Positions 27,659 to 45,610 of a stretch of 64,000 nt of DNA are shown piece after piece (the first letter of the stretch is position 1; each line of letters starts with the position of its first letter). The position numbers and the translations under genes were made by a program. Location: the NCBI GenBank assembly GCA_964446735.1, contig CAYUQB010000002.1:18516-82515 (forward strand). The letters are read 5' to 3'. A model generated the notes under the pieces. It worked only from the letters and a program-made list of their open reading frames with translations, ran no database searches and was not told the DNA's origin. Origin of the DNA: an uncultured Candidatus Saccharibacteria bacterium. GTDB lineage: Bacteria; Patescibacteriota; Minisyncoccia; Phycocordibacterales; Phycocordibacteraceae.

Positions 27659-27659
27659 A

Positions 27660-27688: not shown

Positions 27689-28352
27689 CATTTATGATAG
27701 ATATCATTCTGAATCATCTTGAACACCAGAGTGAAGTAGAGAATCTACGGATCTAAGGATTTAAATCGTGAATCTAGTGCCAAAGTAGGCTGATTTAGCG
27801 TATCTCGTCAGTAATCGCTCAGAGTTGCGCTTTTCTTACATGTGGCAAATATCTCTCTCCATGGCGCAAAAGTGCATCGAGGGATGTTAAGTCTGGCGGG
27901 AGCAGGCTTAGGATGCATCGGAATGATCGAACAGAAACATAAAGCCATGGAAAATATTGTGCGCACTTATAACGAAGAAAATACAAAGCATTTATTAGTC
28001 TTTTCGGATGTTCGAATTGCCGAGTCTACGATTTAATCAAGGCGTGTAATCTCTTGGGTAGCTCCTCATTTGAGCAGAAGTGCTCGTAATTTCGCAAGAA
28101 ATCCTTTTAGAAAATATACAAAAGCGCAAATTAGGATCTCAAAGCTTCTCCAAATCAAATATGTGCATCATTTGCGTCAATCTTTCGAGTCTAGAGCGCA
28201 TTTCTAGCCCTGTTCAGGCATATATTCGCTGTGGAGTTGGTGATTGAAAGATTAATTTCCATAGCGATCGAAATCAGTCGCCTGATTGAACTTTCTACGA
28301 AAAATTTCTTGAGAAAACTTTCATTATTTATCCACAAAGGAAAGCGCGTCAG

Positions 28353-28390
28353 TATCCGAAATAGGAGATAGAATTTACTTAATTCGGATA
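28353..28390 (+). promoter_or_regulatory. inverted repeat spanning the 5' leader/RBS region of the giant gene
   Basis: TATCCGAA-N22-TTCGGATA enclosing AGGAG, ending 6 nt before ATG 28397. Confidence 0.3.
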
Positions 28391-28396
28391 TCCGAC

Positions 28397-31300
28397 ATGT
28401 CCCTTCCACTCGATAAAAATTTCATCCCAAATAAGGTAGCGAGTGAATTGTCCGGATACAACTCGGACTACATCGCTCGACTTTGTCGTGAAGGAAAAAT
28501 CGAGGGTACGCAAATCGGTCGCGCATGGTTCGTAAATCGCGAGTCGCTAGAAAAGTTCATCAAGCAACAGGACACGCGCAAGAAGGAAATCGCGCGTGAA
28601 CTCTCTGCAGCTCGCGAACGCGAGTATTCTGCACGTCAGAATGCCGCAACTGAAGTAAAAGAAGTCAAGGAAGTACGCATTTCTACGGAGACTTCGATTC
28701 CAAAGGCCAAGCTCATCCCTTCGCAGATTGCACCGCTGCAGGCAGTAATTCACCGACCAGTACATGTGCGCGTAAAAGCTCGCAGTCCGCGCCTTTCGGA
28801 GGTTCACCCAACACTTCGCCCAGGATTCGCACTCGCTCTTACTGCACTCGTCTTGATGATCTCTGTATACGCTGCGGAGAGCGGACTCGTAAACAATTTT
28901 GCCTCACGTGTCATTACGTCAGCAATGCGCACTCACGCTGATGCGCCTGAACTTCCGTTGCGAAGCGCGTTTGCCATTCGTGGCATTGGTGAACATCTTG
29001 CACTTGGGACTTCACATCTCGTCACCGGCGCGCCAAAAGTGTATGAACGTGGCCTCATGGCACTGGTGCGGACACCTGCAGATTCTGCTGCAGCTGTTGC
29101 AACGGTCACGACAACTCCGGAACACGGAATCGGTGAGCGCGTTGCGCTTACGACCTACCGTGGCATCACTCGCTTTTTCAGTAACGCTACCGACCGGCTC
29201 GCAGTCTTCTTTGGATTTAAAAGTCCGAACATCGCGGTGCTTCCATTCGAGGCTGCCAGCGCACTTCATCCCTCGACCAATCTTCCCGCACCAACATCAT
29301 CTGGTGAGTATCGACCCACGACGCAAGGTATTACCACCGTCAACTACCTCACGGGAGTTTCGAGTGAGTACGTCGATAGCTACGTCTCCTCGTATGTAAC
29401 CAATGCACTTCGTGGTGTACGCGAGCAGATCGGACGTGATGTGCTGGATAGTAATGCGGTAAAGCGCAGCCGTAGTTCATCGAGCGGAAGCTCTTCAGGT
29501 GGAGCAGCAACCTCGGTGAATGGCGCGGTGGTAGCAACCTCGCTCACGCTCTCTGGTATCACTGGTTCTACGCAGTGTCTCCAAGTTGATACTTCAGGCG
29601 TCGTGTCCGGGACAGGATCCGCCTGTGGTGCAGGCGGCAGCGGAATCACTGGGCTTAAGGGTCAGTATTCAAGTACACAGACAGGCGCAACTCAGACCTT
29701 CGCGACGTCGAGTGATACCAACCTCACACTTACAATCACTTCTTCAGGAGACACGCATACTTTCACGCCGGGTTGGACTGGCGTACTTTCAGTAGCACGG
29801 GGCGGGCTCGGGCTCTCTGCCGTTACTGCCAACGGACTCCTTATCGGAAATTCTGCAGGCACTGGGTACACAAGTGTTGCAACCAGCTCGCTCGGCCTTT
29901 CAACTTCCGACATCAGCGAAGGCAGCAATCTCTACTACACGACTGCACGCTTTGCTGCATCGCTCGCTGGTACTACCACTGACGCACTTGCTGAAGGAGC
30001 GATCAATCGGTACTACACTGACGCACGCGCACGCGCAGCCTACAGTACGACTGCAACTGGTCTCTCATACAGCAGTGCCAGTGGCGTACTCTCGCTCTCG
30101 AGCGGCTACAACATTCCACTCACCGCATCGACCACGAACTGGAATTCTTTCTACGACACACCCTCGACGCGTATCACTGCTGGTACCAATCTTTCCTGGA
30201 GCGGCAACACACTCAACGGTCCGGCTGACTCAACCATTCGAGGACTATTCTCAGGCACCTACCCAGTTAGCTACGACAGTGGCACGGGAGCCTTCAGTCT
30301 TGCGTTTGGTACCACTACTTCAAACACCTGGGCAGGCACACAGACGTTCACCAACACTCCAGTTCTCGGTACGCTCACCGGACTCGTAGGATCAAACAAC
30401 GGTAGCCTCTATCAAATCGCCACCTCTTCCAACTTCGTTACATCGATCGCGCAAAGTTTCGGTTCTGCACAGACCGGTGCCGTCACACTCGCAACAAGTT
30501 CTGCCGCGACCTGGAATGGAGTGACCTTCACTAACTCGATCACTAACTCTGGCGGCACGTTCACCTTCACGCCGGCACTCTCTGGTACGCTCGCGGTCGC
30601 AGGTGGCGGCACCGCCACCACCACCTTCTACAACGGTGGCGTGGTCTTCTCTGACGGCACCAAACTCACCCAAGCAGCCGCCGCAAGCAACTTCTTCTGG
30701 GACAACACCAACAACCGTCTTGGTCTTGGCACCTCTTCTCCATGGGGTCAGCTCTCGATCAATCCGAATGGCATTAGTGGACCAGCGTTTGCAATTGGCT
30801 CTTCTACCGACACCCTCTTCTCCATTACCAGTGGCGGACACATAACAATCGGCACATCCACACCCGCATCAACCAACGGAATAACCCTCACGACAACAGC
30901 AGGTACCGCAGCCCCGATCCTGTACATGTATCGAAACGATAGTTCAGTAACCGCAAGCGAGTCCCTGGGTGCAATTTACTTCGACAGTAACGATGGCCCG
31001 GTGAGTACAAACGATGCTGCGGTAGCTATCCTGGCCCAAGCCGCAGAAGTGCATGGAAGCACCGCGAAAGGTGGACAACTCATTTTCCAGACTAAATCGA
31101 TTGGAACAGGTCCTAATAGTAGTTCCGACGAACGTTTCCGAATTACCGCAAGTAATACCAGCGGTTTCAGTACCTCATCTCCGTATGCGACGCTCTCAAT
31201 TCACACGAACAAGGATGTAACGAATAGAACCCTTTTTGCAATCGGCTCATCGACAGCTTCCGCGACCTCAACGCTCTTTAGTATTACGAACACCGGTTCG

Positions 31301-34300
31301 ACTACTCTCTTCCAACTCCCAAGTTCGGTACTGACTACGAATGAGAATGGCACCATTGTCGGTACCACATCGGTTGGCATTACTTACGGCGGTACCGGCA
31401 TCACTAGCTACACTTCCGGTGATCTTCTCTACGCTAACAGCAGCGGCATCCTCGCAAAGCTTGGAATTGGTTCGGCCGGTCAGGTGCTCAAGGTCACCGG
31501 TGGACTACCTGTATGGGGTGCCGATCTTACGACTGGCGGCGGCGGCGGTGCCGGCGCGTGGGCAACAACGAGTGATAGTCTTGCTGTCTACCCGACCGAC
31601 ACTTCAGACGTCATCATTGTCGGCAACAGCGCGACTAGTACGCTCACCAGTATTTTCGAAGTGCATGGCAAGTCGTACTTCTCAAATTTCCTCGGTATCG
31701 GCACGACGAACCCTTCGACACAACTCTCGGTACAAGGTGATGCGCTCTTCTCGGGTAATCTCTCACTTGCAAACCTTACTGCAACTGGAACGATCTCAAC
31801 CACAAATCTCACGGTAGGTACCCTTAACGGACCACTTCATGCGAACAATGGCGTCGTTTCAGCAACCACGTCTATTGGTGTGCTTTACGGCGGTACAGGT
31901 CTTACGACCGCTCCATCGTACGGACAGCTTTTACTCGGTAACAGCAGTAGTGGCTATACACTCACCGCAACTTCTTCGTTGGGACTCCAGTCGGTTCTCC
32001 AGGGTACCCAAGGTCAGGTCGCATATTTCTCAGACACAAACACTGCGGTCGGTACCTCAAGCATTTTCATCGGAACAAATACGAATGTCGGTATCGGTTC
32101 CTCGTCGCCAAGCGCGAGACTAAGTATTCTCGGTGCAGATGCTGCATCTTCGGGAGCGACTGCACCCCATGCGCTGTATGTACGGGGTGGTACTGGTGGG
32201 TCGACTAGCGGGTTCGGTGGCCCCATAACACTTGTTGGAGGCGCGGCAGGGGTGGCGACCTCAAATGGAGGTACGGTGACCATTGTCTCTGGCTCGTCAT
32301 TTGCAGGACTGCCTGGGGCAGAAATCGAACTGACCGGTTCAGCGAATAGCGCTGGTGGTGGTCTCACGTTCACCGGTGGGAATGGCAGTATCCTTGGAGG
32401 CGGGTTCACATTCACTAGCGGAGATGGTCAGTCGGGCGGTTCATACTACTTCACCTCAGGCGATGGCTCCTTGAATGGTGGTGACTTCAACTTCACAAGT
32501 GGTGCCGCGACTTCTTCCGGAAGCGGTGGACAATTCACTTTCACAGGCGGTGTCGCAAGTTCTACAACTGCAAACGCAACGGGCGGTGGCTTTACCGTCA
32601 CCGGTGGAGCTGCAAGTTCTACGATCTCGACTGTCCACGGTGGTTCCATTCAACTGACCGGCGGCTCGGGTGGTACCGGTGCACTTACGGTAGGAAGTGG
32701 AGGGAATATTGTCCTAAACGGAGGTGCTGCGGGTGTCGCAGGCGGTTCGGTAGGGAACGTGCTTCTCGCTGGGCTACGTGGCAAGGTGGGTATCGGTTCA
32801 AGTAGTCCCTATGCGCTCCTCTCACTGCATGCTTCCAGCACCGCGACCACACCAATGTTGTTTGCAATTAGTTCTTCGACCTCTACGTTTGCGACGTCAT
32901 CGCTGTTCTCCATCAACAATGTCGGTTCTACCACCCTCTTCCAGCTTCCAAGTTCGGTGCTTACCACAAATCAGAATGGAACTATCGTCGGCACCACTTC
33001 AATTGGTGTTACGTACGGTGGTACTGGTCTCACGAGTGGCCCATCGTACGGCCAGTTGCTTGTAGGTAACGCGTCCGCTGGGTATTCACTCACTGCAACG
33101 AGTTCACTCGGACTGGTTACATCAGTGAACGCATCCGGTGGCACTACCGGTCTTTCATTCTCGGGCGGCCCCATCACCTCGTCAGGCACACTTACTCTTT
33201 CTGGGACACTTGGACTTGCGAACGGCGGCACCGCCACCACCACCTTCTACTCCGGTGGCGTGGTCTTCTCCGACGGTGCTCGCCTCACCCAAGCTTCCTC
33301 CACCAGTGACTTCTTCTGGGACTCAACTAACAAGCGTCTTGGTCTTGGCACGTCTACTCCATGGGGCCAACTCTCCATTAACCCCAATGGTATTAGTGGA
33401 CCAGCGTTTGCAATTGGCAGTACCACTAACACGAGCTTTGTGGTGACGAATGGGGGATATGTGGGGATTGGAAGCGCGGTGCCGACCAACGCGCTTACGG
33501 TTGTTGCGAGCTCAACTTCTGTGACGAGCACTTTCCCGTTTGACGACACACAGCTTGAAATTGCAGCAACCTCTTCAAGTTCCGGTTCACTCAATATTGG
33601 TTTGAATTCGAGACAATCACGCTACTACATAGTTGGTAACTCGGGCAATCTGACGTCCAACGATATGTATATTGGTGTTGACGGATCAAGTGATGGATTC
33701 GGAAAGGTTCACATCATCACCGGGTTTGCAGGTGGATCGGTACCACGTATTACTGCCACACGTGATGGTCAGGTGGGTATTGGTACGACTTCTCCCTACG
33801 CAAAATTCGCTGTTCACGCCGCTAATGCTGAAACCAATCGTGTCCTCTTTGCTATTGGTTCCTCAACCGCTTCCGCAACTACCACTCTCTTCTCTGTAAA
33901 CAACATCGGCTCCACAACGCTCTTCCAGCTTCCGAGTTCGGTACTGACTACGAATGAGAATGGCACGATTGTCGGTACCACATCGGTGGGCGTAACGTAC
34001 GGCGGTACGGGACTTTCAACAGCACCCGCCTATGGCCAGCTTCTGGTGGGTAACTCTAGCGGTGGGTATACCCTTACGGCAACCAGCTCACTTGGGCTTG
34101 GTACTGGTAATGGCACCGTCACTTCTGTAGATGCTTCAGGTGGCACTACCGGTCTTTCATTCTCGGGCGGCCCCATCACCTCGTCAGGCACACTTACTCT
34201 TTCTGGGACACTTGGACTTGCGAACGGCGGCACCGCCACCACCACCTTCTACTCCGGTGGCGTGGTCTTCTCCGACGGTGCTCGCCTCACGCAGGCATCT

Positions 34301-37300
34301 TCCACCGGTGACTTCTTCTGGGACTCAACCAACAAACGCCTGGGACTCGGTACCTCAACACCGTTTGCGAAACTTTCTGTCAATCAAAACACGAGCGGTC
34401 CAAGCACGATACCGGCCTTTGTCGTGGGTGCATCTGATTCAACGAAGTTTATCGTCACAGCAAGTGGAAATGTGGGTGTTGGAACTTCTTCCGCTGCGTA
34501 TACACTCGATGTAGGCGGGTTCGCAAACGTCGATAAATTCTCGGGCTACAAACAGGATACGTTCACCATCCTCACTGCATCGTCCACATCACTTTCAACA
34601 TTGGTCGGTATTAATGCAGGCGCGTCACTCACTCAAGGCGCTCGCTATGCAACCGTCCTTGGCTACGGCGCACTCCAGAACACAACGTCCGGCACCTATA
34701 ACACCGCAGTTGGCTATCAAACATTAAATGCGAACTCGACCGGTGCGCAGAACACTGCACTTGGTGCATTCGCACTCACAAATAATTTCACCGGCGCAGA
34801 CAATGTCGCACTTGGCTATGGTGCGAGCTACTTCAATGCATATGCGACGCGCACCGTTGCTATCGGTAGCGAAGCAGGTGAGGGCGTCGGCAACTATGCA
34901 AACCAGGGTGGAGTACTCGTAGGCTACAAGTCTGGCTTCAACCTGACCGATGGTTCCAACTACAATACACTTCTTGGCTACCAATCAGGCTTTGGTATCA
35001 CCACGGGTGCCAACAACATCATCATCGGTGCAGACTCTGATGGGAGTGGTGGAAACTCAAATCTCACCACCGGATCGGGAAATATTCAGATCGGGTACAA
35101 TATCTCGCTCCCAAGCGCGACCGCAAGCAATCAACTCAACATCGGAAATCTTATCTACGGTACCGGAGTGAGTGGCACGGCTTTTGTACCATCGACAGGT
35201 CGTATCGGTATCGCTTCTACGTCACCGTTCGCAAAGCTCTCAGTACATGCGAACAATGGAGATACTAACCCCGCGCTGTTTGCGATAGGTTCTTCAACAG
35301 CAAGTGCGACAACCACTCATTTCCTGGTCACGCGTACCGGCGAAGTCGGCATCGGTACTACTTCTCCGAGCGCGCAGCTTGCACTTTCCGGTGTATCAGG
35401 AACAACCGCAGCAGCACCGGATTTCCTAGGCCTGTTTGGAGGCACAGGAGGCGCGCCAGTCACCGGTGACGCTGGCGCTGGTTCGAGTGGCAGGATTGGT
35501 GCAGGTGCAGGTGGAGCGACAGCTAACGGGAATGGTGGGGCAGGCGGCTCGCTCACCTTCGCTGCCGGTACGGGCGGTGCGTCGTCTCAAACAACCGGTA
35601 TCTCCGGCGCAGGCGGTTCACTTAGCCTTTCGGCCGGTAACGGCGGTGATGGCAGTGAACTGGTGTCGACTCCTGGTAACGGCGGTGCGATTACCATTAC
35701 TGCTGGTTCTGCTGGAGGAAATGGAGCAGCATCTGGCGGTAGTGTGACTATCAATCCGGGTGCAAAGGGTACTACGGGGAGTGATGGAAACGTTCTCATC
35801 GCAACACTTCGTGGGAAAACCGGTATTGGTACTACTTCACCGTACGCAAAGCTCTCCATCCACTCAAATAATGGCGATACCAATAGGACGCTTTTTGCTA
35901 TCGGTTCTTCAACGGCTTCTGCCACGACCACACTCTTCAGTATTACGAACACTGGTGACGCAACACTTCTAGGTACTTCTACTGCTGCAGGTGGTTCCTT
36001 CACGAGACTGACAGTTGGTTCTGATTACTTCACTGATCTTACGGGCACTGGCCTTGCTCTTTCTGGAAGCGCACTTACCCTCGACACAGGAAATGCCAAC
36101 TCTTGGACCGGTACTCAAACGTTTAACACGGTGACCATCAATACTGGATATGTCTTCACCGTTGGAACACTGAATGGTCCTCTGCACGCCAACAACGGAG
36201 TTGTGGCGGCGACAACCTCTATCGGCGTTACGTACGGTGGTACAGGCCTCACGACTGCACCGAGTTACGGTCAAATTCTTGTGGGTAACGCGTCCTCCGG
36301 CTATACCCTCACCGCAACCTCATCACTTGGCCTCCCGACTGGTTCGGGTGCAGCAGGACGTGTCGCGTTCTGGGATGGTACGGGCAGTCTGTCCTCAAAT
36401 GCCAATTTCACTTTCTCCTCGACTAACAGTCAGTTCTCAATTCCAAATAATGGGTGGTATGCAATTGGTGGCAACCTCCTCGGATATGCTTCATCCACAA
36501 ATCAAGCGACGATCTTCGGTCTCGGTGCTGGCGGCAATAACGCAACCACAACTGGAGCCGGAAGTAATCTGACGGCAGTGGGATTCAATGCGCTTAATGC
36601 CATGACGACTGGAGCGAACAACACGGCGGTCGGTTCACTTGCGCTTAGAAGTGCCACAACTGGCGGTGCGAATACGGCGGTCGGTGCGAGTGCGCTCAGT
36701 GCACTTACTACGGGTGGCTTCAACACCGCAGTTGGCTACCTCGCGGGCACCAGCGTAACAACCGGAGCCGGCAACTCGATACTTGGTCACGATGCCGCAG
36801 CCTCACTCACTGTTGGTTGGAATAACACACTCATTGGTCAGTATGCTGGGTACACCATCACGACCGGGTCAGGTAACACCGTGCTTGGCGGTGTCGAAGA
36901 TACAGGAATAAGTAACCTTACGACAGGTGACAACAACATTGCCATTGGACTCAATATTCTGTTCGCGGACGGTACGGCGGATAACCAACTTAACATTGGT
37001 AACTTCATCTTCGGCACCATACCCGCCACAACGACAAACAGTTCACTTCAACTGCCGAAAACCGGCAAACTCGGTATCGCCACCTCTTCTCCGTACGCCA
37101 AACTTTCCATTCACGCGAATAACGGATCAACTGATACCACCCTCTTTGCGATCGGTTCTTCGACCGCAAGTGCTACCTCGACACTCTTTTCCGTTAGTAA
37201 TTCCGGCCAGCTCTCTTCGAATCTCTCGGGAACAACAACACTCTTGCGGGTCGCAGGTCGGGAATTCATCAAGGCGGATACCGCATCACTCAACCTCGCA

Positions 37301-40300
37301 CTCGGCTTTGATCCGCTTCGAGCGCTTACGACCGGAAGCGGGAACATAGCTATCGGTGAGAATGCTGGGTATGGAATTACCACCGGCACGTATAACACCA
37401 GCATCGGATACGGAACACAGAATCAAAACGGTCATTATAATGTGGCGCTCGGATACCAGACCGGCGGAGCTGGCAATAGAGCCGTGGCAGTCGGGTATAA
37501 CGCCTATTCGGATGGACAAGGTGGTATATCAATAGGTGCTGGTGCGAACGCGTTTGGAAGTTCAACTATTGCTGTCGGTTACGGGGCATACGCCAACAAC
37601 ACAGACGGTATTGCACTCGGTAGTGACGTGTTTTCATACGGAACCGCTGCGATCGTGATCGGTGCCTCTGCTTCAAGTGACTCGGGCGCCTCGAGCACTA
37701 TCGCTATCGGTTACAACGCATATGGGGGTGGCACAATTTCTAACACAGTCATTGGCGACACCGCTGGTTTCAACATAGCAGGAAGACGCAATCTTCTTAT
37801 CGGACCGACTGCGTTCGATCCCAATGGTGCTTCAGACGGTGGATTGAGTATTGGCAATCTCATTTTCGGTACACTTCCTGCCACGACCACGGTTGCCTCA
37901 CTACCGCTCACGGGCGCAATCGGTGTTGCTACCACTTCTCCGTATGCAACCCTTTCAGTTCACGCAAACAGCGGCTCAGTAAACACTACGCTCTTCGCGA
38001 TCGGTTCTTCGACCGCGAGTGCCACCTCGACTCTCTTCTCCATTAACAATATCGGCTCCACCACACTCTTCCGTCTCCCAAGTTCAGTCCTTACAACGAA
38101 TGAGAACGGCACAATCGTTGGCACCACATCTGTTGGTGTCACCTATGGCGGTACCGGCCTGGCGACGGCTCCTTCGTACGGTCAACTTCTCCTTGGAAAC
38201 GCATCAAGTGGGTATACACTCACGGCAACGTCCTCTCTCGGTATCGCTATCAGTGATACTACTGGTACGCTCAGTCTTGCTCGTGGCGGCACCGCCACCA
38301 CCACCTTCTACAACGGTGGCGTGGTCTTCTCTGACGGCACCAAACTCACCCAAGCAGCCGCCGCAAGCAACTTCTTCTGGGACAACACGAACAACCGTCT
38401 AGGGCTGGGTACCTCAAGTCCATGGGGCCAGCTCTCCATTAACCCCAATGGCATTAGTGGACCGGCGTTTGCCATCGGGAGTACCACGAGCACAAGTTTT
38501 GTGATTACTAACGCAGGATATGTGGGCATCGGGACGGCAACTCCACAAACCAGCCTCGATATTGATGGAGGTAATGTCCGTATAACGAATCTCTCGGGAA
38601 GTGTACAAAACCTGCTTTCACTCAATAACACGTCAGCGGGAACTGCGGCTGGAAACGCAATTGTATTTAACGGGCCCTCGAGTGTTCAGTATGGAAAAGT
38701 TGAGGTGGCCGCAGATAGTGCAACCAGTCAAACCTATCTTGCGCTCACGGTCCGTGGTGCGAGCGCTGCGTATGAAGCACTTCGTGCGGTGGGTTCGAGC
38801 GGGAGTATTGGTATCGGTACCACCACTCCGAAGTGGAAACTCACTGTTTCCACTTCGACTGCACCGCAACTCACCTTGACTGATGGCTCTGCCACTAATG
38901 CGCCCTTTAACTTCCGTGCCATTAACAACCTTTTGTACTTCTCGACCTCTTCGCCAACTACCTACGCTACCTCAACTCCGTTCTTAAGCTTCGACAGCTC
39001 TACTGCTTCGACCAGTATTCTGAGACTTGATGTGACGGGCACTGGAACCTCTACCTTTGCCAACGGTCTCAATATCGCCAATGGTTGCTATGCCGTGAAC
39101 GGTGTTTGCTTGGTCGGTACGTTCACCAACACGCTCGCTTCAGGCGGCACCGCCACCACCACCTTCTACAACGGTGGCGTGGTCTTCTCTGACGGCACCA
39201 AACTCACCCAAGCAGCCGCCGCAAGCAACTTCTTCTGGGACAACACGAACAACCGTCTCGGACTTGGAACATCGACACCATTTGGTCAGCTCTCCATCGA
39301 TTCGAACGGAATTACTGGTCCTGCGTTTGTTATTGGTTCATCAACCGCCACTCATCTGTTAGTTGAGAATAGTGGAAGAGTGGGTGTTGGTACTACCTCG
39401 CCTGCATCCGCGTATGGATTTAATGTCGGCACAAACTCGTATTTTGGAGCCACTACAACATTCGCTGGAGGTGCTGCTATCGGTGCATTTACCTCGGGGG
39501 GTAAGACAGGTACCTGGATTAATCTTCCAACGACTGGTCCGTCTGGTATTGGTACTGGCGGAGCAGGAAGTAACCCGTTTGTCGCATATGCTGCGTCAGC
39601 CACCGACTGGTTCAACGGTTCAATAATAGGTGACGCTGTGTATCGTAACGCAAACGGAACTCGTATTCTCATGGGCATTAGCAACAATAATGGTACTGCT
39701 CAACCACAGATTATTATTCAAGGTAACGCCTCATCTACCTGGCAAACCAGTTTCGGTACGACTTCACCATGGGGCATGGTCTCGATTGGTTCCCATGGGA
39801 TTGGAGACAAACCGGCGTTTGTCATTGGTTCGTCAACCGCGACTAATTTGATCGTCACCAATAGTGGACGAGTAGGTATTGGCACTAGCTCTCCTACCAG
39901 CATGCTCGCAGTTGGGGGAAACGTGACAATTAGTACTGCTGCAGCAAATAGCGGATTGCTGACCATCTACTCAGAGGACACAGGGTCCCTGTCCAATATG
40001 CAGGGTATCGTCGTTGCTGATCGTCAAAATGCCTACGGATCCTGGCAGACTCCTAGCGGGCTCGATGGAGTTCAGATCGGCGGCGGCGGCGAAGTAACCG
40101 CCTGGAATCAAGACTTCTTTATCAACTACTACTCCACCGGAGATGTGCGGCTTGCTCGCGGCGGCGGAGATGTGTTTGTAGGAAGCTCTCCACCGACAGC
40201 TCGGTTAAGCGTTAAGGGAAGCGCGGGTAGTACGACACCGGTGTTCCTCGTTTCTTCCTCCACGAACGCGAATCTATTTAATGTGCAATCGACTGGATTC

Positions 40301-43210
40301 GTGGGTGTCGGTTCTTCAACTCCGTGGGGTCAGTTCTCAGTGAATGCGTACGCAAGTACTGCACCAGCCTTCGTCGTCGGCAGCTCGAGTGCCACCAGTC
40401 TCGTGGTTTCTAACGGCGGCAATGTCGGTATCGGAACGAGTACGCCAGCACGCGCACTCCACGTCGCAAACTCAGGTGCCAGCTCACAATTCCTCCTCGA
40501 GGATACGGCGGCAGCTGCTGATCAACACATCGGTTCGATTGGGTTCTCACGCGGTGTCTTTAGCTTCAACACCCTTACCGATTCACTCGCAACGACCACT
40601 CGCCTCACCATCGACACCAGTGGCAATGTAGGTATCGCAACGTCTACACCGACCGCAAAGTTCGCGCTTACCGGAAGTGGCACCGGAACCGGTCGTCTCT
40701 TCGTACTTGCGGACTCGGCCAATACCGAACGACTCACCATTCTTGATAACGGAAAGGTAGGTATTGGTACAACCAGTCCAAACTGGCTCCTCTCGGTGTC
40801 AGGAACATCCGGCACTCGCTTCAAGACAACATCGGCTATCCAGAATGCGTTTGTCGTCGAGAATGCGGTTGGCACATCGACATTCCAAGTGGACACGCTT
40901 GATAACAGCGATTCCATCTTCTCGGTCGCGACCTCGTCGGGCAGTACGTACTTCTACGTTGGTGCGTCAGGACGCATTGGCGTAGGCACCACAACGCCGG
41001 GCGCTGCCCTCGATGTCTATAATGGTGCGCTGTGCGTTGATGACAGCTCGCCGACTTGTCAGGACGCTGCGCGTACCGCCGGTACAATCTATGCAGTTTC
41101 AACCTCCATTACCGGCATCGACCTTGCCGAGCGATACCCGACCAAGGATGCAACGCTTGCAGCAGCCGAGATCGTAGCGTTCGATCCTGCAAATCCGGTG
41201 TTTGTGAAGCGTGCTGCTTCAGGCAGCAGTTCGTTCCTCGGTGTCGTATCCACCCAGCCGGGTATTCTCCTCGGCGGCTATAACGACTCCTTATATAAGG
41301 ACGAGGTGAAAGTACCGGTGGCCCTTGCTGGTCGTGTCCCTGTTGCCGTTACGATGGAGGGAGGTGCTATCGACGTTGGTGACTACATCACCATCTCCAG
41401 TACGCCGGGTGTGGGAAAGAAGGCGACTGCGTCAGGCCAGACCATCGGCGTCGCGCTTGAGCCGGCAACCGCTGATGGCACTATCCAGGTATACATCAAA
41501 CCTGAGTATGTATTTGTGCCAAGCCAGCTCGCGATTGATGCTGATACAGGAAATGTCGGTATCGGAGTTGAGAACCCAACTCGTAAGCTTGAAGTGGCAG
41601 GAGATGCATTCTTCTCGGGCTTCCTTACTTCAGATCGATTTGTTGCATCCGGCTCGGGCACTAGCACGCTCCCACGAATTACCACCAATGCCATCGATCT
41701 TGCCGGCCAGTACCTCACTTCGGTTACCGGTACCGGACTCGAACTTTCGGGCGGCATACTCTCGATCGCAACGTCTTCGCTCACCAGTAATCTCTTCGCG
41801 CAGGGCGGCAATTCCTTTGGAACCACGACGGTGCTTGGCACTCGCGATACGCAGGATCTTGCCTTCATGACTGCAAGTTCGACTCGGCTCACTATTACCG
41901 CAGCCGGTAAGGTGGGTATTGGCACCGCGGCTCCCGCGCATGCGCTTGAAGTGGTTGGTGATGTTGCTGCCATTAGCTTCGTAAACACCTCAACTCGTAC
42001 TGCGAAGGAAGATATTACCTATCTCACGCAGGAAGATACGAAGGGTATTCTCGACACGCTTCGAGGCCTCAAGGTTGCCGAGTACCACTACAAGATTGAA
42101 AATCAATCAAATCCGCTCCGGCTTGGACTCATCGCAGAAGAGGCGCCTACTGAAGTACTCTCGCTTGATGGTAAGGGAGTTGATATCTATAAACTCGCAA
42201 CCTTCACCCTTGCCGGTGTCCAGTCGCTTGCAGGCAAAGTCGACACGCTCGAAGCAAAGGTTGCGGATATCGACGCACGACTCGCGCAGCTCGGGGGAGT
42301 AACACTTGCAACTACCAGTACCAGCACGAAAATCGCATCAAGCGGTGTCGGCCTGGGTGACCTTCCAGACGCACTACGCAGCTTCGGAGCATTCATTGGT
42401 AATGGCATCGCACAATTCCAAACACTCGTTGCACGACAATTTGTCGCAAGCAAGGATGCGGACGGCACGTCTTCTGCAGGTGAGGGAACCGTTGCATCAA
42501 CCACCAACTCGACCACCATTGAGAACAAACTGGTACGAGCATCAAGCAAGATCTTCATCACGTTCACGAGCCCAGTGGAGGGTGGGTGGTATCTGGCTGA
42601 TAAGAAGGAGGGAAGCTTCCGGGTGGTGCTGAAGAGCATGCCGGCTGAAGATGTCACGTTTGACTACTTCTTCATCCAGACCGAAGGGCAGCTCGCGGCG
42701 TCCGGCGCAGCGTCTGGCACCACAGACGGCAGCGATACGGAGCCGCCGGTGATTACGCTCAATGGTGAGACCTCTACGTACGTGCCAGTGGGGGAGACAT
42801 ACGTCGATCCTGGCGTGTCAGCGGTGGATGCAGTTGATGGCCCAGTTAGGTACAACCGACAGATAAATGGACAAACGATGGATATCAATGCTCCGCTTGA
42901 TACCTCGCACGAAGCGACCTATACGCTTACCTACGTTGCCTTCGATGCAAAGGGTAACTACGCAAGTGCCACTCGCACCGTCATTGTGGCAGCGCCCGGT
43001 GGTGGGGGAGCAGTACTTCCCGGTGCAACTCCCGAGCCGACACCTGCCCCAGAACCTGCACCGATACCTGAACCTACACCTGAACCTACACCTGAACCTG
43101 CACCAGAGCCAGCTCCGGAGCCAACACCAACTCCCGAGCCGACGCCTGCCCCAGAACCTGCACCGGAACCGGCTCCTGAACCAGCGCCATCCCCAGCTCT
43201 AGAAGGATGA
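28397..43210 (+). CDS. giant (4,937-aa) membrane-anchored fibre/adhesin-like protein with four parts: N-terminal HTH_17-like module and TM helix; Gly/Thr/Ser-rich modular repeat fibre; C-terminal peptidase-S74 intramolecular chaperone domain; DUF5011/Ig-like domain and (PEPT)n tail
   Basis: Single uninterrupted ORF of 14,814 nt. TM helix PGFALALTALVLMISVYAA (about aa 140-160). At least seven copies of the module LFAIGSSTASATSTLFSI-N-GSTTLFQLPSSVLTTNENGTIVGTTSVGVTYGGTGL..YGQLLVGN..GYTLTATSSLGL. NTAxG/AIG repeats (about 34.6-35.2 kb and 36.5-37.9 kb) resemble YadA-head/phage tail-fibre repeats. aa about 4532-4650 STRTAKEDITYL..LRGLKVAEYHYK..RLGLIAEEAP..LEAKVADIDARLAQL match the Peptidase_S74 (endosialidase chaperone) profile including the Ser-x4-Lys dyad. 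aa about 4780-4865 PVITLNGETSTYVPVGETYVDPGVSAVDAVDG...TYTLTYVAFDAKGNYASATRTVIV match DUF5011. C-terminus PEPTPAPEPAPIPEPTPEPTPEP... Confidence 0.85.
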   Translation: MSLPLDKNFIPNKVASELSGYNSDYIARLCREGKIEGTQIGRAWFVNRESLEKFIKQQDTRKKEIARELSAAREREYSARQNAATEVKEVKEVRISTETSIPKAKLIPSQIAPLQAVIHRPVHVRVKARSPRLSEVHPTLRPGFALALTALVLMISVYAAESGLVNNFASRVITSAMRTHADAPELPLRSAFAIRGIGEHLALGTSHLVTGAPKVYERGLMALVRTPADSAAAVATVTTTPEHGIGERVALTTYRGITRFFSNATDRLAVFFGFKSPNIAVLPFEAASALHPSTNLPAPTSSGEYRPTTQGITTVNYLTGVSSEYVDSYVSSYVTNALRGVREQIGRDVLDSNAVKRSRSSSSGSSSGGAATSVNGAVVATSLTLSGITGSTQCLQVDTSGVVSGTGSACGAGGSGITGLKGQYSSTQTGATQTFATSSDTNLTLTITSSGDTHTFTPGWTGVLSVARGGLGLSAVTANGLLIGNSAGTGYTSVATSSLGLSTSDISEGSNLYYTTARFAASLAGTTTDALAEGAINRYYTDARARAAYSTTATGLSYSSASGVLSLSSGYNIPLTASTTNWNSFYDTPSTRITAGTNLSWSGNTLNGPADSTIRGLFSGTYPVSYDSGTGAFSLAFGTTTSNTWAGTQTFTNTPVLGTLTGLVGSNNGSLYQIATSSNFVTSIAQSFGSAQTGAVTLATSSAATWNGVTFTNSITNSGGTFTFTPALSGTLAVAGGGTATTTFYNGGVVFSDGTKLTQAAAASNFFWDNTNNRLGLGTSSPWGQLSINPNGISGPAFAIGSSTDTLFSITSGGHITIGTSTPASTNGITLTTTAGTAAPILYMYRNDSSVTASESLGAIYFDSNDGPVSTNDAAVAILAQAAEVHGSTAKGGQLIFQTKSIGTGPNSSSDERFRITASNTSGFSTSSPYATLSIHTNKDVTNRTLFAIGSSTASATSTLFSITNTGSTTLFQLPSSVLTTNENGTIVGTTSVGITYGGTGITSYTSGDLLYANSSGILAKLGIGSAGQVLKVTGGLPVWGADLTTGGGGGAGAWATTSDSLAVYPTDTSDVIIVGNSATSTLTSIFEVHGKSYFSNFLGIGTTNPSTQLSVQGDALFSGNLSLANLTATGTISTTNLTVGTLNGPLHANNGVVSATTSIGVLYGGTGLTTAPSYGQLLLGNSSSGYTLTATSSLGLQSVLQGTQGQVAYFSDTNTAVGTSSIFIGTNTNVGIGSSSPSARLSILGADAASSGATAPHALYVRGGTGGSTSGFGGPITLVGGAAGVATSNGGTVTIVSGSSFAGLPGAEIELTGSANSAGGGLTFTGGNGSILGGGFTFTSGDGQSGGSYYFTSGDGSLNGGDFNFTSGAATSSGSGGQFTFTGGVASSTTANATGGGFTVTGGAASSTISTVHGGSIQLTGGSGGTGALTVGSGGNIVLNGGAAGVAGGSVGNVLLAGLRGKVGIGSSSPYALLSLHASSTATTPMLFAISSSTSTFATSSLFSINNVGSTTLFQLPSSVLTTNQNGTIVGTTSIGVTYGGTGLTSGPSYGQLLVGNASAGYSLTATSSLGLVTSVNASGGTTGLSFSGGPITSSGTLTLSGTLGLANGGTATTTFYSGGVVFSDGARLTQASSTSDFFWDSTNKRLGLGTSTPWGQLSINPNGISGPAFAIGSTTNTSFVVTNGGYVGIGSAVPTNALTVVASSTSVTSTFPFDDTQLEIAATSSSSGSLNIGLNSRQSRYYIVGNSGNLTSNDMYIGVDGSSDGFGKVHIITGFAGGSVPRITATRDGQVGIGTTSPYAKFAVHAANAETNRVLFAIGSSTASATTTLFSVNNIGSTTLFQLPSSVLTTNENGTIVGTTSVGVTYGGTGLSTAPAYGQLLVGNSSGGYTLTATSSLGLGTGNGTVTSVDASGGTTGLSFSGGPITSSGTLTLSGTLGLANGGTATTTFYSGGVVFSDGARLTQASSTGDFFWDSTNKRLGLGTSTPFAKLSVNQNTSGPSTIPAFVVGASDSTKFIVTASGNVGVGTSSAAYTLDVGGFANVDKFSGYKQDTFTILTASSTSLSTLVGINAGASLTQGARYATVLGYGALQNTTSGTYNTAVGYQTLNANSTGAQNTALGAFALTNNFTGADNVALGYGASYFNAYATRTVAIGSEAGEGVGNYANQGGVLVGYKSGFNLTDGSNYNTLLGYQSGFGITTGANNIIIGADSDGSGGNSNLTTGSGNIQIGYNISLPSATASNQLNIGNLIYGTGVSGTAFVPSTGRIGIASTSPFAKLSVHANNGDTNPALFAIGSSTASATTTHFLVTRTGEVGIGTTSPSAQLALSGVSGTTAAAPDFLGLFGGTGGAPVTGDAGAGSSGRIGAGAGGATANGNGGAGGSLTFAAGTGGASSQTTGISGAGGSLSLSAGNGGDGSELVSTPGNGGAITITAGSAGGNGAASGGSVTINPGAKGTTGSDGNVLIATLRGKTGIGTTSPYAKLSIHSNNGDTNRTLFAIGSSTASATTTLFSITNTGDATLLGTSTAAGGSFTRLTVGSDYFTDLTGTGLALSGSALTLDTGNANSWTGTQTFNTVTINTGYVFTVGTLNGPLHANNGVVAATTSIGVTYGGTGLTTAPSYGQILVGNASSGYTLTATSSLGLPTGSGAAGRVAFWDGTGSLSSNANFTFSSTNSQFSIPNNGWYAIGGNLLGYASSTNQATIFGLGAGGNNATTTGAGSNLTAVGFNALNAMTTGANNTAVGSLALRSATTGGANTAVGASALSALTTGGFNTAVGYLAGTSVTTGAGNSILGHDAAASLTVGWNNTLIGQYAGYTITTGSGNTVLGGVEDTGISNLTTGDNNIAIGLNILFADGTADNQLNIGNFIFGTIPATTTNSSLQLPKTGKLGIATSSPYAKLSIHANNGSTDTTLFAIGSSTASATSTLFSVSNSGQLSSNLSGTTTLLRVAGREFIKADTASLNLALGFDPLRALTTGSGNIAIGENAGYGITTGTYNTSIGYGTQNQNGHYNVALGYQTGGAGNRAVAVGYNAYSDGQGGISIGAGANAFGSSTIAVGYGAYANNTDGIALGSDVFSYGTAAIVIGASASSDSGASSTIAIGYNAYGGGTISNTVIGDTAGFNIAGRRNLLIGPTAFDPNGASDGGLSIGNLIFGTLPATTTVASLPLTGAIGVATTSPYATLSVHANSGSVNTTLFAIGSSTASATSTLFSINNIGSTTLFRLPSSVLTTNENGTIVGTTSVGVTYGGTGLATAPSYGQLLLGNASSGYTLTATSSLGIAISDTTGTLSLARGGTATTTFYNGGVVFSDGTKLTQAAAASNFFWDNTNNRLGLGTSSPWGQLSINPNGISGPAFAIGSTTSTSFVITNAGYVGIGTATPQTSLDIDGGNVRITNLSGSVQNLLSLNNTSAGTAAGNAIVFNGPSSVQYGKVEVAADSATSQTYLALTVRGASAAYEALRAVGSSGSIGIGTTTPKWKLTVSTSTAPQLTLTDGSATNAPFNFRAINNLLYFSTSSPTTYATSTPFLSFDSSTASTSILRLDVTGTGTSTFANGLNIANGCYAVNGVCLVGTFTNTLASGGTATTTFYNGGVVFSDGTKLTQAAAASNFFWDNTNNRLGLGTSTPFGQLSIDSNGITGPAFVIGSSTATHLLVENSGRVGVGTTSPASAYGFNVGTNSYFGATTTFAGGAAIGAFTSGGKTGTWINLPTTGPSGIGTGGAGSNPFVAYAASATDWFNGSIIGDAVYRNANGTRILMGISNNNGTAQPQIIIQGNASSTWQTSFGTTSPWGMVSIGSHGIGDKPAFVIGSSTATNLIVTNSGRVGIGTSSPTSMLAVGGNVTISTAAANSGLLTIYSEDTGSLSNMQGIVVADRQNAYGSWQTPSGLDGVQIGGGGEVTAWNQDFFINYYSTGDVRLARGGGDVFVGSSPPTARLSVKGSAGSTTPVFLVSSSTNANLFNVQSTGFVGVGSSTPWGQFSVNAYASTAPAFVVGSSSATSLVVSNGGNVGIGTSTPARALHVANSGASSQFLLEDTAAAADQHIGSIGFSRGVFSFNTLTDSLATTTRLTIDTSGNVGIATSTPTAKFALTGSGTGTGRLFVLADSANTERLTILDNGKVGIGTTSPNWLLSVSGTSGTRFKTTSAIQNAFVVENAVGTSTFQVDTLDNSDSIFSVATSSGSTYFYVGASGRIGVGTTTPGAALDVYNGALCVDDSSPTCQDAARTAGTIYAVSTSITGIDLAERYPTKDATLAAAEIVAFDPANPVFVKRAASGSSSFLGVVSTQPGILLGGYNDSLYKDEVKVPVALAGRVPVAVTMEGGAIDVGDYITISSTPGVGKKATASGQTIGVALEPATADGTIQVYIKPEYVFVPSQLAIDADTGNVGIGVENPTRKLEVAGDAFFSGFLTSDRFVASGSGTSTLPRITTNAIDLAGQYLTSVTGTGLELSGGILSIATSSLTSNLFAQGGNSFGTTTVLGTRDTQDLAFMTASSTRLTITAAGKVGIGTAAPAHALEVVGDVAAISFVNTSTRTAKEDITYLTQEDTKGILDTLRGLKVAEYHYKIENQSNPLRLGLIAEEAPTEVLSLDGKGVDIYKLATFTLAGVQSLAGKVDTLEAKVADIDARLAQLGGVTLATTSTSTKIASSGVGLGDLPDALRSFGAFIGNGIAQFQTLVARQFVASKDADGTSSAGEGTVASTTNSTTIENKLVRASSKIFITFTSPVEGGWYLADKKEGSFRVVLKSMPAEDVTFDYFFIQTEGQLAASGAASGTTDGSDTEPPVITLNGETSTYVPVGETYVDPGVSAVDAVDGPVRYNRQINGQTMDINAPLDTSHEATYTLTYVAFDAKGNYASATRTVIVAAPGGGGAVLPGATPEPTPAPEPAPIPEPTPEPTPEPAPEPAPEPTPTPEPTPAPEPAPEPAPEPAPSPALEG
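30605..30720 (+). repeat. 116-bp near-perfect direct repeat family, copy 1 of 3 (inside giant ORF)
   Basis: GGCGGCACCGCCACCACCACCTTCTACAACGGTGGCGTGGTCTTCTCTGACGGCACCAAACTCACCCAAGCAGCCGCCGCAAGCAACTTCTTCTGGGACAACAC(C/G)AACAACCGTCT. One mismatch versus copies at 38285..38400 and 39143..39258. Confidence 0.85.
33137..33288 (+). repeat. 152-bp perfect direct repeat, copy 1 (inside giant ORF)
   Basis: Identical to 34139..34290 by direct comparison; encodes GGTTGLSFSGGPITSSGTLTLSGTLGLANGGTATTTFYSGGVVFSDGARL. Confidence 0.9.
34139..34290 (+). repeat. 152-bp perfect direct repeat, copy 2 (inside giant ORF)
   Basis: Identical to 33137..33288; spacing 1,002 bp (334 codons), one protein repeat module. 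Confidence 0.9.
38285..38400 (+). repeat. 116-bp direct repeat family, copy 2 of 3
   Basis: Identical to 39143..39258 over this span; one mismatch versus 30605..30720. Confidence 0.85.
39143..39258 (+). repeat. 116-bp direct repeat family, copy 3 of 3
   Basis: See copies 1 and 2. Confidence 0.85.
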
Positions 43211-43257
43211 TTTACGCTATACTTATTTATGACGTTCGTCTCACCAACCACCTCACC

Positions 43258-44550
43258 ATGAAAACAGTTGCGCTCTTCCTTGCTCTCCTCCTCATGCCTA
43301 TTCAGGCATTTGCGATGAGTCAACCTCTCTTTTCTGCCATAGGTCAGATCTCAGGCGTCTCGGGGTCAACCCGTTACTACGGATGCGGAAATTCTGGAGT
43401 TACAAACTCCTCAATTGCACTAGTCGCACCTCCCCTCTCGGTTGCGGGAGTACTAGATAACCTTCAAGTGTCGACAAGTGCCGCTCCCGGGGCGGGGACT
43501 ACCATTACCTACACCGTCGAAAAGAATGACGTTGACACAACACAGACCTGCCAAATTTCTGACACAGCGACTACCTGTTCGGATGCCGCTCATCCAATAA
43601 CATTCGCAGCCGGCGATACTTGTGGTATTCGCACTCAAGCCACAACCGGTGCTCCAGCAGCAATAGAATCAAATGTTTCCAACTCATTCGTTCCCACCGC
43701 CGACGGTGAAGCGGTTATCACAGGTTCAGGTTCAAGTGCACTAAATAGTGCAACGGGCTATTATGCTGTGTATGGAGATACTGCAACGACCTCCATAACT
43801 CGCGCCTCTACAACCTTTCCTACCAACGGAACAGTCGATAAATTTTACGTTGCACTAAGCGGTACTCCCGGGACGGGCACCTCATATGACTTCACAGTGT
43901 TTAAGAACGGTGTAACAACTGGCATCACCTGCCAGGTTGCTAACACCGCAACAACGTGCAATGACCCAACGAACACTGCATCCTTCTCCGCAGGTGACTC
44001 TATCACCATCCAGGTGGTTCCTACTGGCACACCGACTGCGCGGTCGCCCAAATGGGGTCTTCGCTTCACGCCGACGATAAATGGCGAGAGCGTTTTGTTT
44101 GTTCGTGAACTCAACAATTCAAACGTCACTCGCTACCATGCCATACAAGGCTCTGGGGAGCGCAGCACTAACGAAGTCAACGTGCAGGTGGTAGCACCGC
44201 TCGCGTTCCAGCTGAAGAAACTTTATTTCAACATCGTACACGGTCAACCGACCGCCGGCACCAGCCGTATTCTTACCGTGAGAAAGAACGGTGCCGGTAC
44301 GTCGTTAGGCGGGACACTCACCGATACGGCTGCGTGGGTGACTGATCTTAGCGATACCGTTGACTATGCGGCCGGTGATCTCGTATCTACAGAAATGACC
44401 AACACTGGCTCACCACCCACGGCTGTTGTTGAATTCTGGTCAACGGTTGCGTTCGTAGATCCTGGAACTGCGGCCACGACCCCTACTTCGAAGTTCCGTA
44501 TCTTCGGCGGTAAGTGGAATATTTTTGGGGGCAGCGTATTCCTCCGATAA
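43258..44550 (+). CDS. secreted protein with N-terminal signal peptide and three about 100-aa Thr/Cys-containing repeat domains; unknown function
   Basis: Start placed at MKTVALFLALLLMPIQAFA (signal peptide); the ORF as tracked begins at 43207. Three repeats with pattern ..T(F/V)xKNG..TCQ(I/V)..TATTC(S/N)D....F(A/S)AGD(T/S). Immediately downstream of the giant gene. Confidence 0.5.
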   Translation: MKTVALFLALLLMPIQAFAMSQPLFSAIGQISGVSGSTRYYGCGNSGVTNSSIALVAPPLSVAGVLDNLQVSTSAAPGAGTTITYTVEKNDVDTTQTCQISDTATTCSDAAHPITFAAGDTCGIRTQATTGAPAAIESNVSNSFVPTADGEAVITGSGSSALNSATGYYAVYGDTATTSITRASTTFPTNGTVDKFYVALSGTPGTGTSYDFTVFKNGVTTGITCQVANTATTCNDPTNTASFSAGDSITIQVVPTGTPTARSPKWGLRFTPTINGESVLFVRELNNSNVTRYHAIQGSGERSTNEVNVQVVAPLAFQLKKLYFNIVHGQPTAGTSRILTVRKNGAGTSLGGTLTDTAAWVTDLSDTVDYAAGDLVSTEMTNTGSPPTAVVEFWSTVAFVDPGTAATTPTSKFRIFGGKWNIFGGSVFLR

Positions 44551-44555
44551 TCCCT

Positions 44556-45572: not shown

Positions 45573-45610
45573 AAGCTTGTTAAATAAGGGTTTTCTGAAG
45601 AGTCTCGCTC

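Follow-up and report, generated by a model that had tools for sequence, protein, structure and literature searches.

Trimeric fibers capped by a chaperone domain of the Peptidase_S74 family are familiar from bacteriophage tails, and the MAT proteins of Bdellovibrio are surface-exposed trimeric adhesins whose S74 domain cleaves itself at the serine of an SDxxxK motif (PMC10769870). [quoted passage not shown] Here we describe a 14.8-kb gene in a stretch of 64,000 nucleotides, hereafter the window, from an uncultured Candidatus Saccharibacteria bacterium (assembly GCA_964446735.1, contig CAYUQB010000002.1, positions 18,516 to 82,515). The gene, at window positions 28397..43210 of the forward (+) strand on which all of its features lie, encodes a protein of 4,937 amino acids that joins an N-terminal helix-turn-helix (HTH) and a single transmembrane (TM) helix to a very long repeat-rich shaft and an S74-containing C-terminus. 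We consider it probable, if by no means certain, that this giant protein is a chromosomal, vertically inherited surface fiber resembling phage tail fibers; such a fiber would probably be trimeric and, by analogy with the systems just named, would most likely serve as an adhesin.

The open reading frame (ORF) starts with ATG and runs through 4,937 codons with zero internal stops, so that the single uninterrupted reading frame proposed in an original prediction, which had been made from the DNA letters and the ORF translations, stands. Its product is dominated by glycine (14.5%), threonine (14.1%), serine (12.2%), and alanine (10.9%). Giant repeat-rich genes are known to assemble poorly, most related contigs break within the giant gene, and the exact 4,937-aa product has no record in the contig index, all of which speak for an assembly artifact or pseudogene in which separate genes were fused or repeats collapsed or expanded. 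Against this stand the stop-free 14.8 kb and the internal DNA repeats themselves, whose copies are just 61% to 88% identical and include no long exact repeats in a self-comparison, making repeat collapse unlikely. In addition, a separate Logan assembly (run SRR12113420) is 100% identical over window positions 41207-46314, which covers the final 2 kb of the giant gene plus downstream DNA and ends, at 46314, just within a prophage region, and relatives carry similar-sized ORFs with the same end-to-end design. An artifact of this kind, including the chimera of several genes against which the original prediction had cautioned, thus appears extremely unlikely.

At its N-terminus, the protein has a head, predicted to be cytoplasmic, whose winged HTH resembles those of the excisionase/MerR (HTH_17) class (aa 9-58; 28421..28570) and which continues into a long charged alpha-helix (aa 48-95; 28538..28681) and a low-confidence linker (aa 96-131). 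Pfam HTH_17 (PF12728) matches aa 15-58 with 22.7 bits when the whole protein is scanned and with 27.2 bits, just above the cut-off of 27, on aa 1-330, while TIGR01764 stays at 15.8 compared to its cut-off of 28.8. HTH_17 was the sole N-terminal family found, and Trans_reg_C, HTH_25, and DUF4115 gave no matches in our Pfam scans. An AlphaFold2 (AF2) model built from six homologues places a strand at residues 9-11, helices at 12-19 and 23-32, a hairpin at 37-47, and the long helix at 48-95, which together make up the beta-alpha-alpha-beta-beta topology of a winged-helix fold. Its per-residue confidence (pLDDT) is 91 to 96 up to about residue 80 and is given as above 94 for the winged HTH; aa 96-131 are disordered, and another helix spans residues 138-162. 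The best Foldseek matches of this head are TraN of pIP501, the excisionases (Xis) of Pukovnik and Tn916, GlnR, RacA, BldC, and RdfS (probability up to 1.0, E 0.02-0.5), with 33% to 36% identity to TraN over ca. 56 to 61 aligned columns, and a profile search with the head reaches TraN/AM32 also by sequence (E 1.2e-4). Residues G20, Y21, D24, Y25, L29, R31, G41, R42, and W44 are invariant.

The sole hydropathy peak of TM grade lies at aa 142-165 (28820..28891), at the position of the AF2 helix at 138-162, and is read here as a signal anchor ending in V-Y-A↓A. Its flanks carry net charges of +4 on the N-terminal and 0 on the C-terminal side, from which an N-in, C-out orientation is predicted. The juxtamembrane region that follows (aa 166-400; 28892..29596), predicted to be extracellular and Ser-rich at its end, is conserved in close orthologues only: together with the head, it shares 50% to 52% identity with the homologues P0001, P0002, and P0149/L001, and this similarity extends beyond the TM helix. 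Many orthologous giant ORFs share a small-x-small motif, A-Y-A↓S/A, where the hydrophobic stretch reaches its outer end. The hydrophobic segment could thus be a signal peptide, one whose folded N-region is unusually long and which signal peptidase I would cleave after A161 (V-Y-A↓A); the fiber would then be released or be retained non-covalently at the envelope through aa 166-400, and a remnant of ca. 160 aa with HTH and TM helix would persist in the membrane, where it could act in regulation by reporting on export. The recurrence of this motif, the conservation of aa 166-400 among close orthologues, and the precedent of the Bdellovibrio MATs, which have a cleaved signal peptide and a surface-binding N-terminal domain (PMC10769870), speak for such processing. 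However, at ca. 18 to 23 residues, the hydrophobic stretch is as long as expected of a TM helix and not of a signal peptide, and thousands of small proteins combine the same head with no more than a short ectodomain, an arrangement closer to that of a stable anchor. Cleavage therefore seems rather unlikely to us, and a surface fiber with a type II membrane anchor is the best-supported reading.

At the other end of the protein, an AF2 model of the C-terminal 740 aa calculated with 56 homologues comprises four confident domains, followed by a disordered tail. The first domain (aa 4241-4370; 41117..41506) has the fold of the C-terminal autochaperone fragment of phi29 gp12 and of phage cement or decoration proteins. 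Among 15 homologous copies of this domain, Pfam finds Phage_cement_2 in 12, XM1_gp53 in 10, and Peptidase_G2 (PF11962) in seven, the latter with a best E-value of 1.3e-4. The proteins P0099 and P0113 carry PF11962. The giant protein's own copy gave no match to PF11962 at E up to 1, and a profile of the domain had no significant match among PDB sequences, so that the kinship is visible by fold only. A motif D4242-L-A-E4245-x-Y-P ("DLAERYP") at its start is highly conserved across the 15 copies, with D, A, and E invariant and Y present in at least 90%, and a Cys-x8-Cys stretch (C4213, C4221) precedes it. The domain is internal (aa 4241-4370 of 4,937) and not C-terminal as in Peptidase_G2.

The second domain is the Peptidase_S74 chaperone and autoprotease (PF13884) at aa 4532-4633 (41990..42295), with a Ser4532-x4-Lys4537 dyad and a long C-terminal helix. 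When the segment aa 4480-4700 is scanned, it scores 26.1 bits and thereby exceeds the cut-off of 22, but it is absent from the list of matches to the whole protein, so that segment-wise Pfam scans are needed to see it; dozens of close homologues carry PF13884 as a precomputed match. The domain has the fold expected of an intramolecular chaperone, its dyad is conserved in aligned relatives (S4532 in 51 of 53, K4537 in 50 of 51), and the extreme C-terminal end of the tail fiber profile phrog_18983 (profile positions 1852-1967 of 1970) aligns to it with E 4.7e-13. It is followed by a beta-sandwich (aa 4655-4765; 42359..42691) to which Pfam has no match and for which we have no family name, modeled with pLDDT of about 70 to 96, mostly above 90, and conserved in relatives including L003 and L042. 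Next come a Bact_surface_Ig-like (DUF5011) domain (aa 4786-4864; 42752..42988; Pfam E 5.9e-13) and a disordered (PEPT/PAPE)n tail (aa 4873-4937; 43013..43207; pLDDT ca. 40) in which Tandem Repeats Finder reports a period of 12 at 43037-43104 and which gives low-complexity matches to Trypan_PARP and TonB. The original prediction had already named the HTH_17/Xis-like motif, the single TM helix, the S74 domain, and the DUF5011/Ig-like domain with its PEPT tail, and all of these were borne out by profile scores, hydropathy, and the models of both termini; what it had missed is the gp12-like domain.

Between the two ends extends the fiber shaft (aa 401-4240; 29597..41116), a mosaic rich in glycine, threonine, serine, and alanine. 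PHROG profiles of virion-structural, tail spike, and tail fiber proteins match aa 2012-2868 with E-values down to 1.6e-24, while Pfam found no family in ten separate shaft segments (aa ca. 400-4240) and a search of PDB sequences with aa 401-2000 found nothing. The seven regular modules of ca. 330 aa that had been proposed for this part did not materialize. Instead, modules recur in five to seven copies each at spacings of 858 to 4,059 nt, such as the irregularly spaced blocks "GGTATTTFY…NNRLGLGTS" (five copies), "LFAIGSST" (seven copies), and "YGGTG[LI]" (six copies), and Tandem Repeats Finder detects the PEPT tail alone, which means that no simple tandem array makes up the shaft. A loop motif [VILF]G[IVLF][GA][TS]xxP…[LF] occurs in 23 copies from aa 775 to aa 4506, 22 of them within the shaft, though a literal search for the published MAT loop consensus gave 0 matches in the giant protein.

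The shaft also holds Gly-rich and NTAxG blocks. A likeness of its repeats to YadA heads or phage fibers had been suggested, of which the phage part is supported by the PHROG matches and the YadA part is weak: one NTAxG-type block (aa 3009-3121; 37421..37759) matches the YadA head structure 1p9h with E 8.5e-4 in phmmer, and Pfam YadA_head reaches 14.7 bits on the NTAxG blocks compared to a cut-off of 25. The last fiber segment before the S74 domain (aa 4371-4531; 41507..41989), which contains the repeats that come closest to MAT tips and the last copy of the loop motif at aa 4506, is similar in sequence to crystal structures of Bdellovibrio MAT tips, namely 8ojn (E 2.4e-6) and 8ond of Bd2133 (E 1.2e-4; both phmmer).

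The giant gene is embedded in a conserved chromosomal neighborhood of housekeeping genes: upstream lie those for a Wzy/TPR protein, MurB, SecA, Obg, and GatB, downstream that for GAPDH. Among 80 loci obtained by scanning GTDB species representatives for the HTH motif, which were not chosen for synteny and some of which may match a small paralogue rather than the giant gene, tblastn finds GatB upstream of the HTH match in 79, Obg in 74, and SecA in 56, and a small HTH-TM homologue sits between GatB and the HTH-headed ORF in all 80. In the window, this homologue is a protein of 268 aa (26852..27658, + strand) with an Xis/MerR-type HTH (Pfam HTH_17, aa 11-55, 23.1 bits), an acidic linker, and a C-terminal TM helix, and it shares 30% identity with the giant protein's N-terminus. 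The conserved order is therefore SecA-Obg-GatB-(small HTH-TM gene)-giant gene; GAPDH lies downstream in two of the 80 loci (L030, L048) and in a separately fetched relative (L081). An HTH-headed ORF of more than 1,000 aa is present in 31 of the 80 loci, five of which extend past 3,400 aa to the 10-kb limit of the fetched sequence. Since many relatives end at this limit or at contig ends, counts of the full architecture are lower bounds.

All 80 loci carry Patescibacteria-type or generic "bacterium" labels except L001 (JBLNCF010000018.1), the closest locus, which has the same gene order and was deposited as a metagenome-assembled genome (MAG) of a "Bacillota bacterium." This label is probably wrong, as content and synteny look like Parcubacteria/Paceibacterota, and the closest homologues of the giant protein likewise come from Parcubacteria/Paceibacterota MAGs. 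We read the giant gene itself as belonging to a Patescibacteria bacterium of Parcubacteria/Paceibacterota type. Identity to L001 is 83% for SecA, 83% for Obg, and 76% for GatB compared to 51% for the giant protein's N-terminus and 45% for the 268-aa HTH protein; judged by these figures, the giant protein appears to diverge faster than its neighbors, as expected of an interaction surface.

The design recurs at smaller size. The complete 2,690-aa protein of L003 comprises HTH_17 (34.2 bits), a TM helix, a fiber, S74 (53.6 bits), the sandwich, an Ig-like domain (82 bits), and an acidic tail, and the 2,519-aa protein of L042 is similar but lacks a recognizable N-terminal part of S74. The C-terminal 520 aa of the L003 protein contain two tandem S74-like segments before the post-S74 sandwich and Ig-like domain, the first reading "…NQLRPVTYALKK…LGFLAQEV…" and the second beginning with "FINVSTETSK…". 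Searching for the S74+DUF5011 C-terminus gave 645 matches, for which the sources offer no names beyond "DUF5011 domain-containing," "tail fiber domain-containing," and "hypothetical." The recurrence of this conserved locus and its synteny make the giant gene look like a conserved, vertically inherited feature of the lineage.

The same body of evidence bears on the view that we are dealing with a phage or prophage tail fiber gene or with a recent acquisition from a phage. Phage hallmarks are seen in its S74 domain, in the domain of gp12/cement type, and in the matches to tail fiber PHROGs; a prophage lies about 3 kb downstream, and the family of the next gene occurs in phage structural modules. 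Nevertheless, the GC content of the giant gene (0.51-0.56) resembles that of the upstream host flank (ca. 0.53) and not that of the prophage (ca. 0.42), GAPDH stands between the two, and the prophage part of the window contains no homologue of the giant gene. Moreover, the position next to SecA, Obg, GatB, and the 268-aa HTH protein is the same in 79 to 80 of 80 genomes, and a virion fiber would have no need of a cytoplasmic head and a TM anchor. A prophage tail fiber was rejected on GC content and conserved synteny, and we see very little chance that the gene belongs to, or recently came from, a phage.

Taken as a chromosomal surface fiber, the giant protein suggests the following course of assembly. 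Its N-terminal ca. 140 aa with the winged HTH and the long helix would remain in the cytoplasm, while the helix at aa 142-165 would act as an N-in signal anchor and direct the export of the remaining ca. 4,770 aa via Sec. Outside the cell, the S74 chaperone would align three chains from the C-terminal end, possibly helped in chain registration by the gp12-type domain (aa 4241-4370), and the chains would zip into a trimeric shaft of beta-helical or beta-roll type. That S74 trimerizes, templates the beta-helix from the C-terminal end, and then cuts itself would follow from established knowledge of this domain and from the work on MATs (PMC10769870), in which residues 662-1031 of Bd2133 span 142-150 Å. 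Scaling this crystal-structure span to ca. 4,100 residues gives an estimated shaft length of ca. 150 to 160 nm, about as much as a CPR cell is wide. Finally, the Ser4532/Lys4537 dyad is predicted to cut before Ser4532 and to release a 406-aa fragment of chaperone, beta-sandwich, Ig-like domain, and PEPT tail, exposing a distal tip that may bind a ligand on another cell or surface. This picture agrees with the earlier suggestion of a trimeric cell surface fiber for attachment to a host or partner, which fits the homology to MAT fibers (PMC10769870) and the tail fiber PHROG matches, though the architecture is not as singular as had been supposed.

Several points weigh against this scheme. The role as an adhesin is drawn from analogy, and the conserved A-Y-A↓S/A motif is a possible signal peptidase site that could detach the fiber from its HTH head. 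The S74 motif reads S4532-T-R-T-A-K4537, with Thr at the position following the serine and not Asp as in SDxxxK (PMC10769870). Unlike in phage fibers and MATs, the S74 domain is not terminal but followed by ca. 290 conserved residues, so that the released piece would be a multi-domain fragment that may have a role of its own. A second domain with autochaperone fold lies ca. 160 aa upstream of S74, and processing may therefore be more complex than outlined. Lastly, the AF2 model of the monomer provides no information on the fiber parts, where pLDDT is below 50 at aa 4403-4494.

What the cytoplasmic HTH might do can be approached from the distribution of the head. Using a profile of the HTH-TM head against 1.84 billion representatives of clusters at 50% identity (E <= 1e-3), we found 8,562 related clusters. 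In 138 of the best 149 of these, one or two HTH copies are followed by exactly one TM helix, and most of the best relatives are 290 to 400 aa in length, though some are long. The proteins P0125-P0273 exemplify a very large Patescibacteria family without a functional name, most of whose members have ca. 290 to 400 aa, one or two tandem HTHs, one TM helix, and a short ectodomain; in many of them, the ectodomain closes with a conserved motif, for example "DSFSDETKVYPDNSGVSGVIKPVFKK…DQDYLYVVVPV". Thousands of small proteins bear this head, many of them as tandem copies, and so does the adjacent 268-aa protein, which favors a generic module over a dedicated sensor. We therefore favor a putative cytoplasmic docking or oligomerization module, possibly acting together with the small HTH-TM neighbor or with DNA, or else a DNA tether, and rank a membrane-tethered regulator second. 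Precedents for a cytoplasmic HTH joined to a membrane span exist in several directions, none of them a family match: ToxR and CadC regulate transcription, RacA anchors the chromosome, and the HTH of RodZ binds MreB and not DNA.

According to the strongest form of the regulator idea, the protein would primarily work as ToxR/CadC or Notch do, as a transcription factor or sensor tethered to the membrane, with a fiber that senses contact or tension and a signal that alters DNA binding or frees the HTH by regulated proteolysis. The fold is indeed a bona fide DNA-binding type whose nearest solved relatives (TraN, Xis, GlnR, RacA, and BldC) bind DNA, its invariant residues testify to strong conservation, and the order of HTH, one TM helix, and ectodomain equals that of the ToxR class. 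Conversely, there is no visible route for a signal along a fiber of ca. 4,700 aa and through one helix, the conserved block contains no gene for a site-2 protease or partner, the head is the widespread module just described, and RodZ illustrates that an HTH at this position can bind a protein. Release of the HTH by S74 cleavage in the manner of MYRF was rejected, as the TM helix separates the two domains. Overall, we regard a dedicated sensor as improbable. Only slightly less doubtful is that the HTH is a DNA- or nucleoid-binding domain coupled to a fiber that is adhesin and sensor at once, with the lineage wiring its surface to the chromosome. If this were true, genes could, for instance, be controlled upon host attachment by freeing the HTH in response to contact or tension, or the HTH could hold the nucleoid in place where the cell is attached, and the family of HTH-TM surface proteins, with thousands of clusters and lengths from ca. 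300 to at least ca. 5,000 aa, would amount to a Patescibacteria-specific surface-to-chromosome wiring. We retain the docking module on an anchored adhesive fiber as the favored interpretation.

Beyond the fiber itself, its surroundings have some features of their own. The upstream gene and the giant gene are separated by a spacer of 738 bp (27659..28396) with a hairpin right after the upstream stop codon. Only its final ca. 30 to 90 bp are conserved (blastn against related loci matches positions ca. 647-738), and spacers of 400 to 1,000 bp are also present in L001, L002, and L004. An ORF search of the spacer found no credible ORF, and an Rfam scan of the whole window, spacer included, found no family; there is also no tRNA in the 64 kb. 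Directly downstream, a gene for 447 aa (43207..44550, + strand) overlaps the giant's stop codon with its start, though translation more likely begins at Met18 (43258), ahead of a signal peptide. Its product belongs to a family of secreted repeat proteins of ca. 400 to 450 aa with 139 homologues, many on contigs of ca. 38 kb, and has no Pfam or PHROG match; in L083, a homologue lies within a phage structural module (Terminase_3, SU10_adaptor). The absence of this gene from all 80 syntenic loci makes it look like a phage-derived insertion beside the fiber gene, and it probably does not belong to the conserved fiber locus. The prophage or phage-derived region itself begins just past 46 kb (window ca. 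46000-64000) and encodes AAA_24 (46236-47423), Phage_rep_O (47468-48025), a ParB_N+N6_N4 methylase (48881-50110), both terminase subunits (small, 50085-50762; large, 50659-52341), and a portal of SU10 type (52396-54420).

A separate observation concerns inteins, split at the level of genes, that interrupt the fiber tip of many relatives. In L081 (1139-6682; JGI 3300011997 Ga0120162_1000094), a first ORF carries S74 and, at its end, an N-intein ([quoted passage not shown]) and continues with fiber, S74, and Ig-like domain before GAPDH, as in the window. The observation also covers the proteins P0010, P0016-P0019, P0021-P0023, P0025, P0028, P0031, and P0040, and more than 12 distinct clusters begin with a C-intein, which suggests either a natural split intein with trans-splicing of fiber tips or inteins invaded by mobile DNA.

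A full-text search of the literature turned up the Bdellovibrio MAT paper but no paper describing this family of S74/HTH-TM fibers in CPR bacteria, and a preprint on giant genes of Omnitrophota does not cover it either. The original prediction had called the architecture undescribed. This may hold for the literature, but as a claim of uniqueness it is wrong for the databases given the 8,562 clusters with related heads, the same succession of HTH_17, S74, and Ig-like domain in L003, and the 645 matches to the S74+DUF5011 C-terminus. With a predicted length of ca. 150 nm, a likeness to phage receptor-binding proteins, a fixed site by SecA/Obg/GatB in many Paceibacteria-type genomes, fast divergence, and modules of known biochemistry, the giant fiber would be a concrete candidate for the means by which Patescibacteria locate their hosts and stay attached to them. 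The finding from Bdellovibrio that cells, and not just phages, recognize other bacteria with S74-capped fibers would moreover be extended to a distant and large branch of bacteria, and the locus makes the function of the HTH-TM head, a very abundant uncharacterized module, approachable.

The closest described relatives are the MATs of Bdellovibrio, particularly the S74 subgroup (e.g., Bd3182), and also Bd2133. Both they and the giant protein are chromosomally encoded, phage fiber-like mosaics of beta-helical type with "G-x-V-G-I-G-T-x-x-P…L" loops and an S74 domain, and the tip structures align directly in sequence. However, MATs of ca. 1,000 aa start with a cleaved signal peptide and a conserved domain, beta-rich and ca. 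130 aa long, whereas Pfam, the AF2 model, and hydropathy show a winged HTH and a TM helix in their place in the giant protein, which is five times longer. MATs of the S74 subgroup end in this domain, whereas the giant protein has an additional gp12/cement-like domain and continues for ca. 290 residues, and the host is a predatory proteobacterium in one case and a monoderm CPR bacterium in the other. Phage tail fibers with S74, such as the K1F endosialidase and the L-shaped fiber protein pb1 of T5, share the domain and its S-x4-K dyad of Ser and Lys. The giant protein differs from them in being membrane-anchored and not part of a virion, with an internal S74 in which Thr and not Asp follows the Ser. 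The autochaperone of phi29 gp12 (MEROPS G2, PDB 3gqh) and cement proteins (HFTV1, XM1 gp53, Pam3, and the base of phi29 gp8.5) correspond to a domain that in the giant protein lies ca. 570 aa from the C-terminus.

For the other end of the protein, TraN, Xis, BldC, GlnR, and RacA offer the same winged HTH fold, which is tandem in TraN as in many small HTH-TM proteins. Yet TraN, Xis, and MerR-type proteins are soluble DNA binders, while the HTH of the giant protein is joined via a TM helix to a fiber predicted to be extracellular. The topology of an N-terminal cytoplasmic HTH, one TM helix, and an extracytoplasmic part is that of ToxR/CadC and RodZ, but their HTHs are of OmpR type and Xre type, respectively, compared to the Xis/MerR type seen here, and their ectodomains are a sensor or the RodZ C-domain and not a fiber. 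In MYRF, the membrane does not separate the DNA-binding from the chaperone domain, both being on one side of it, and cleavage frees a transcription factor, whereas the giant protein has its TM helix between the two, which are ca. 4,370 aa apart. YadA is likewise long, fibrous, and adhesin-like and is weakly matched by the NTAxG blocks, but it is anchored by a C-terminal beta-barrel that the giant protein lacks, its own anchor being N-terminal. Membership in the RodZ, ToxR, or trimeric autotransporter adhesin families was rejected on domain tests (no Trans_reg_C, HTH_25, or DUF4115, and YadA_head below its cut-off). As judged from sequence comparison, the giant protein would thus belong to a known kind, the S74-capped trimeric fibers, and what appears to be new are its winged HTH-TM head, its giant size, the extra gp12/cement domain, the extension beyond S74, and the synteny across the lineage.

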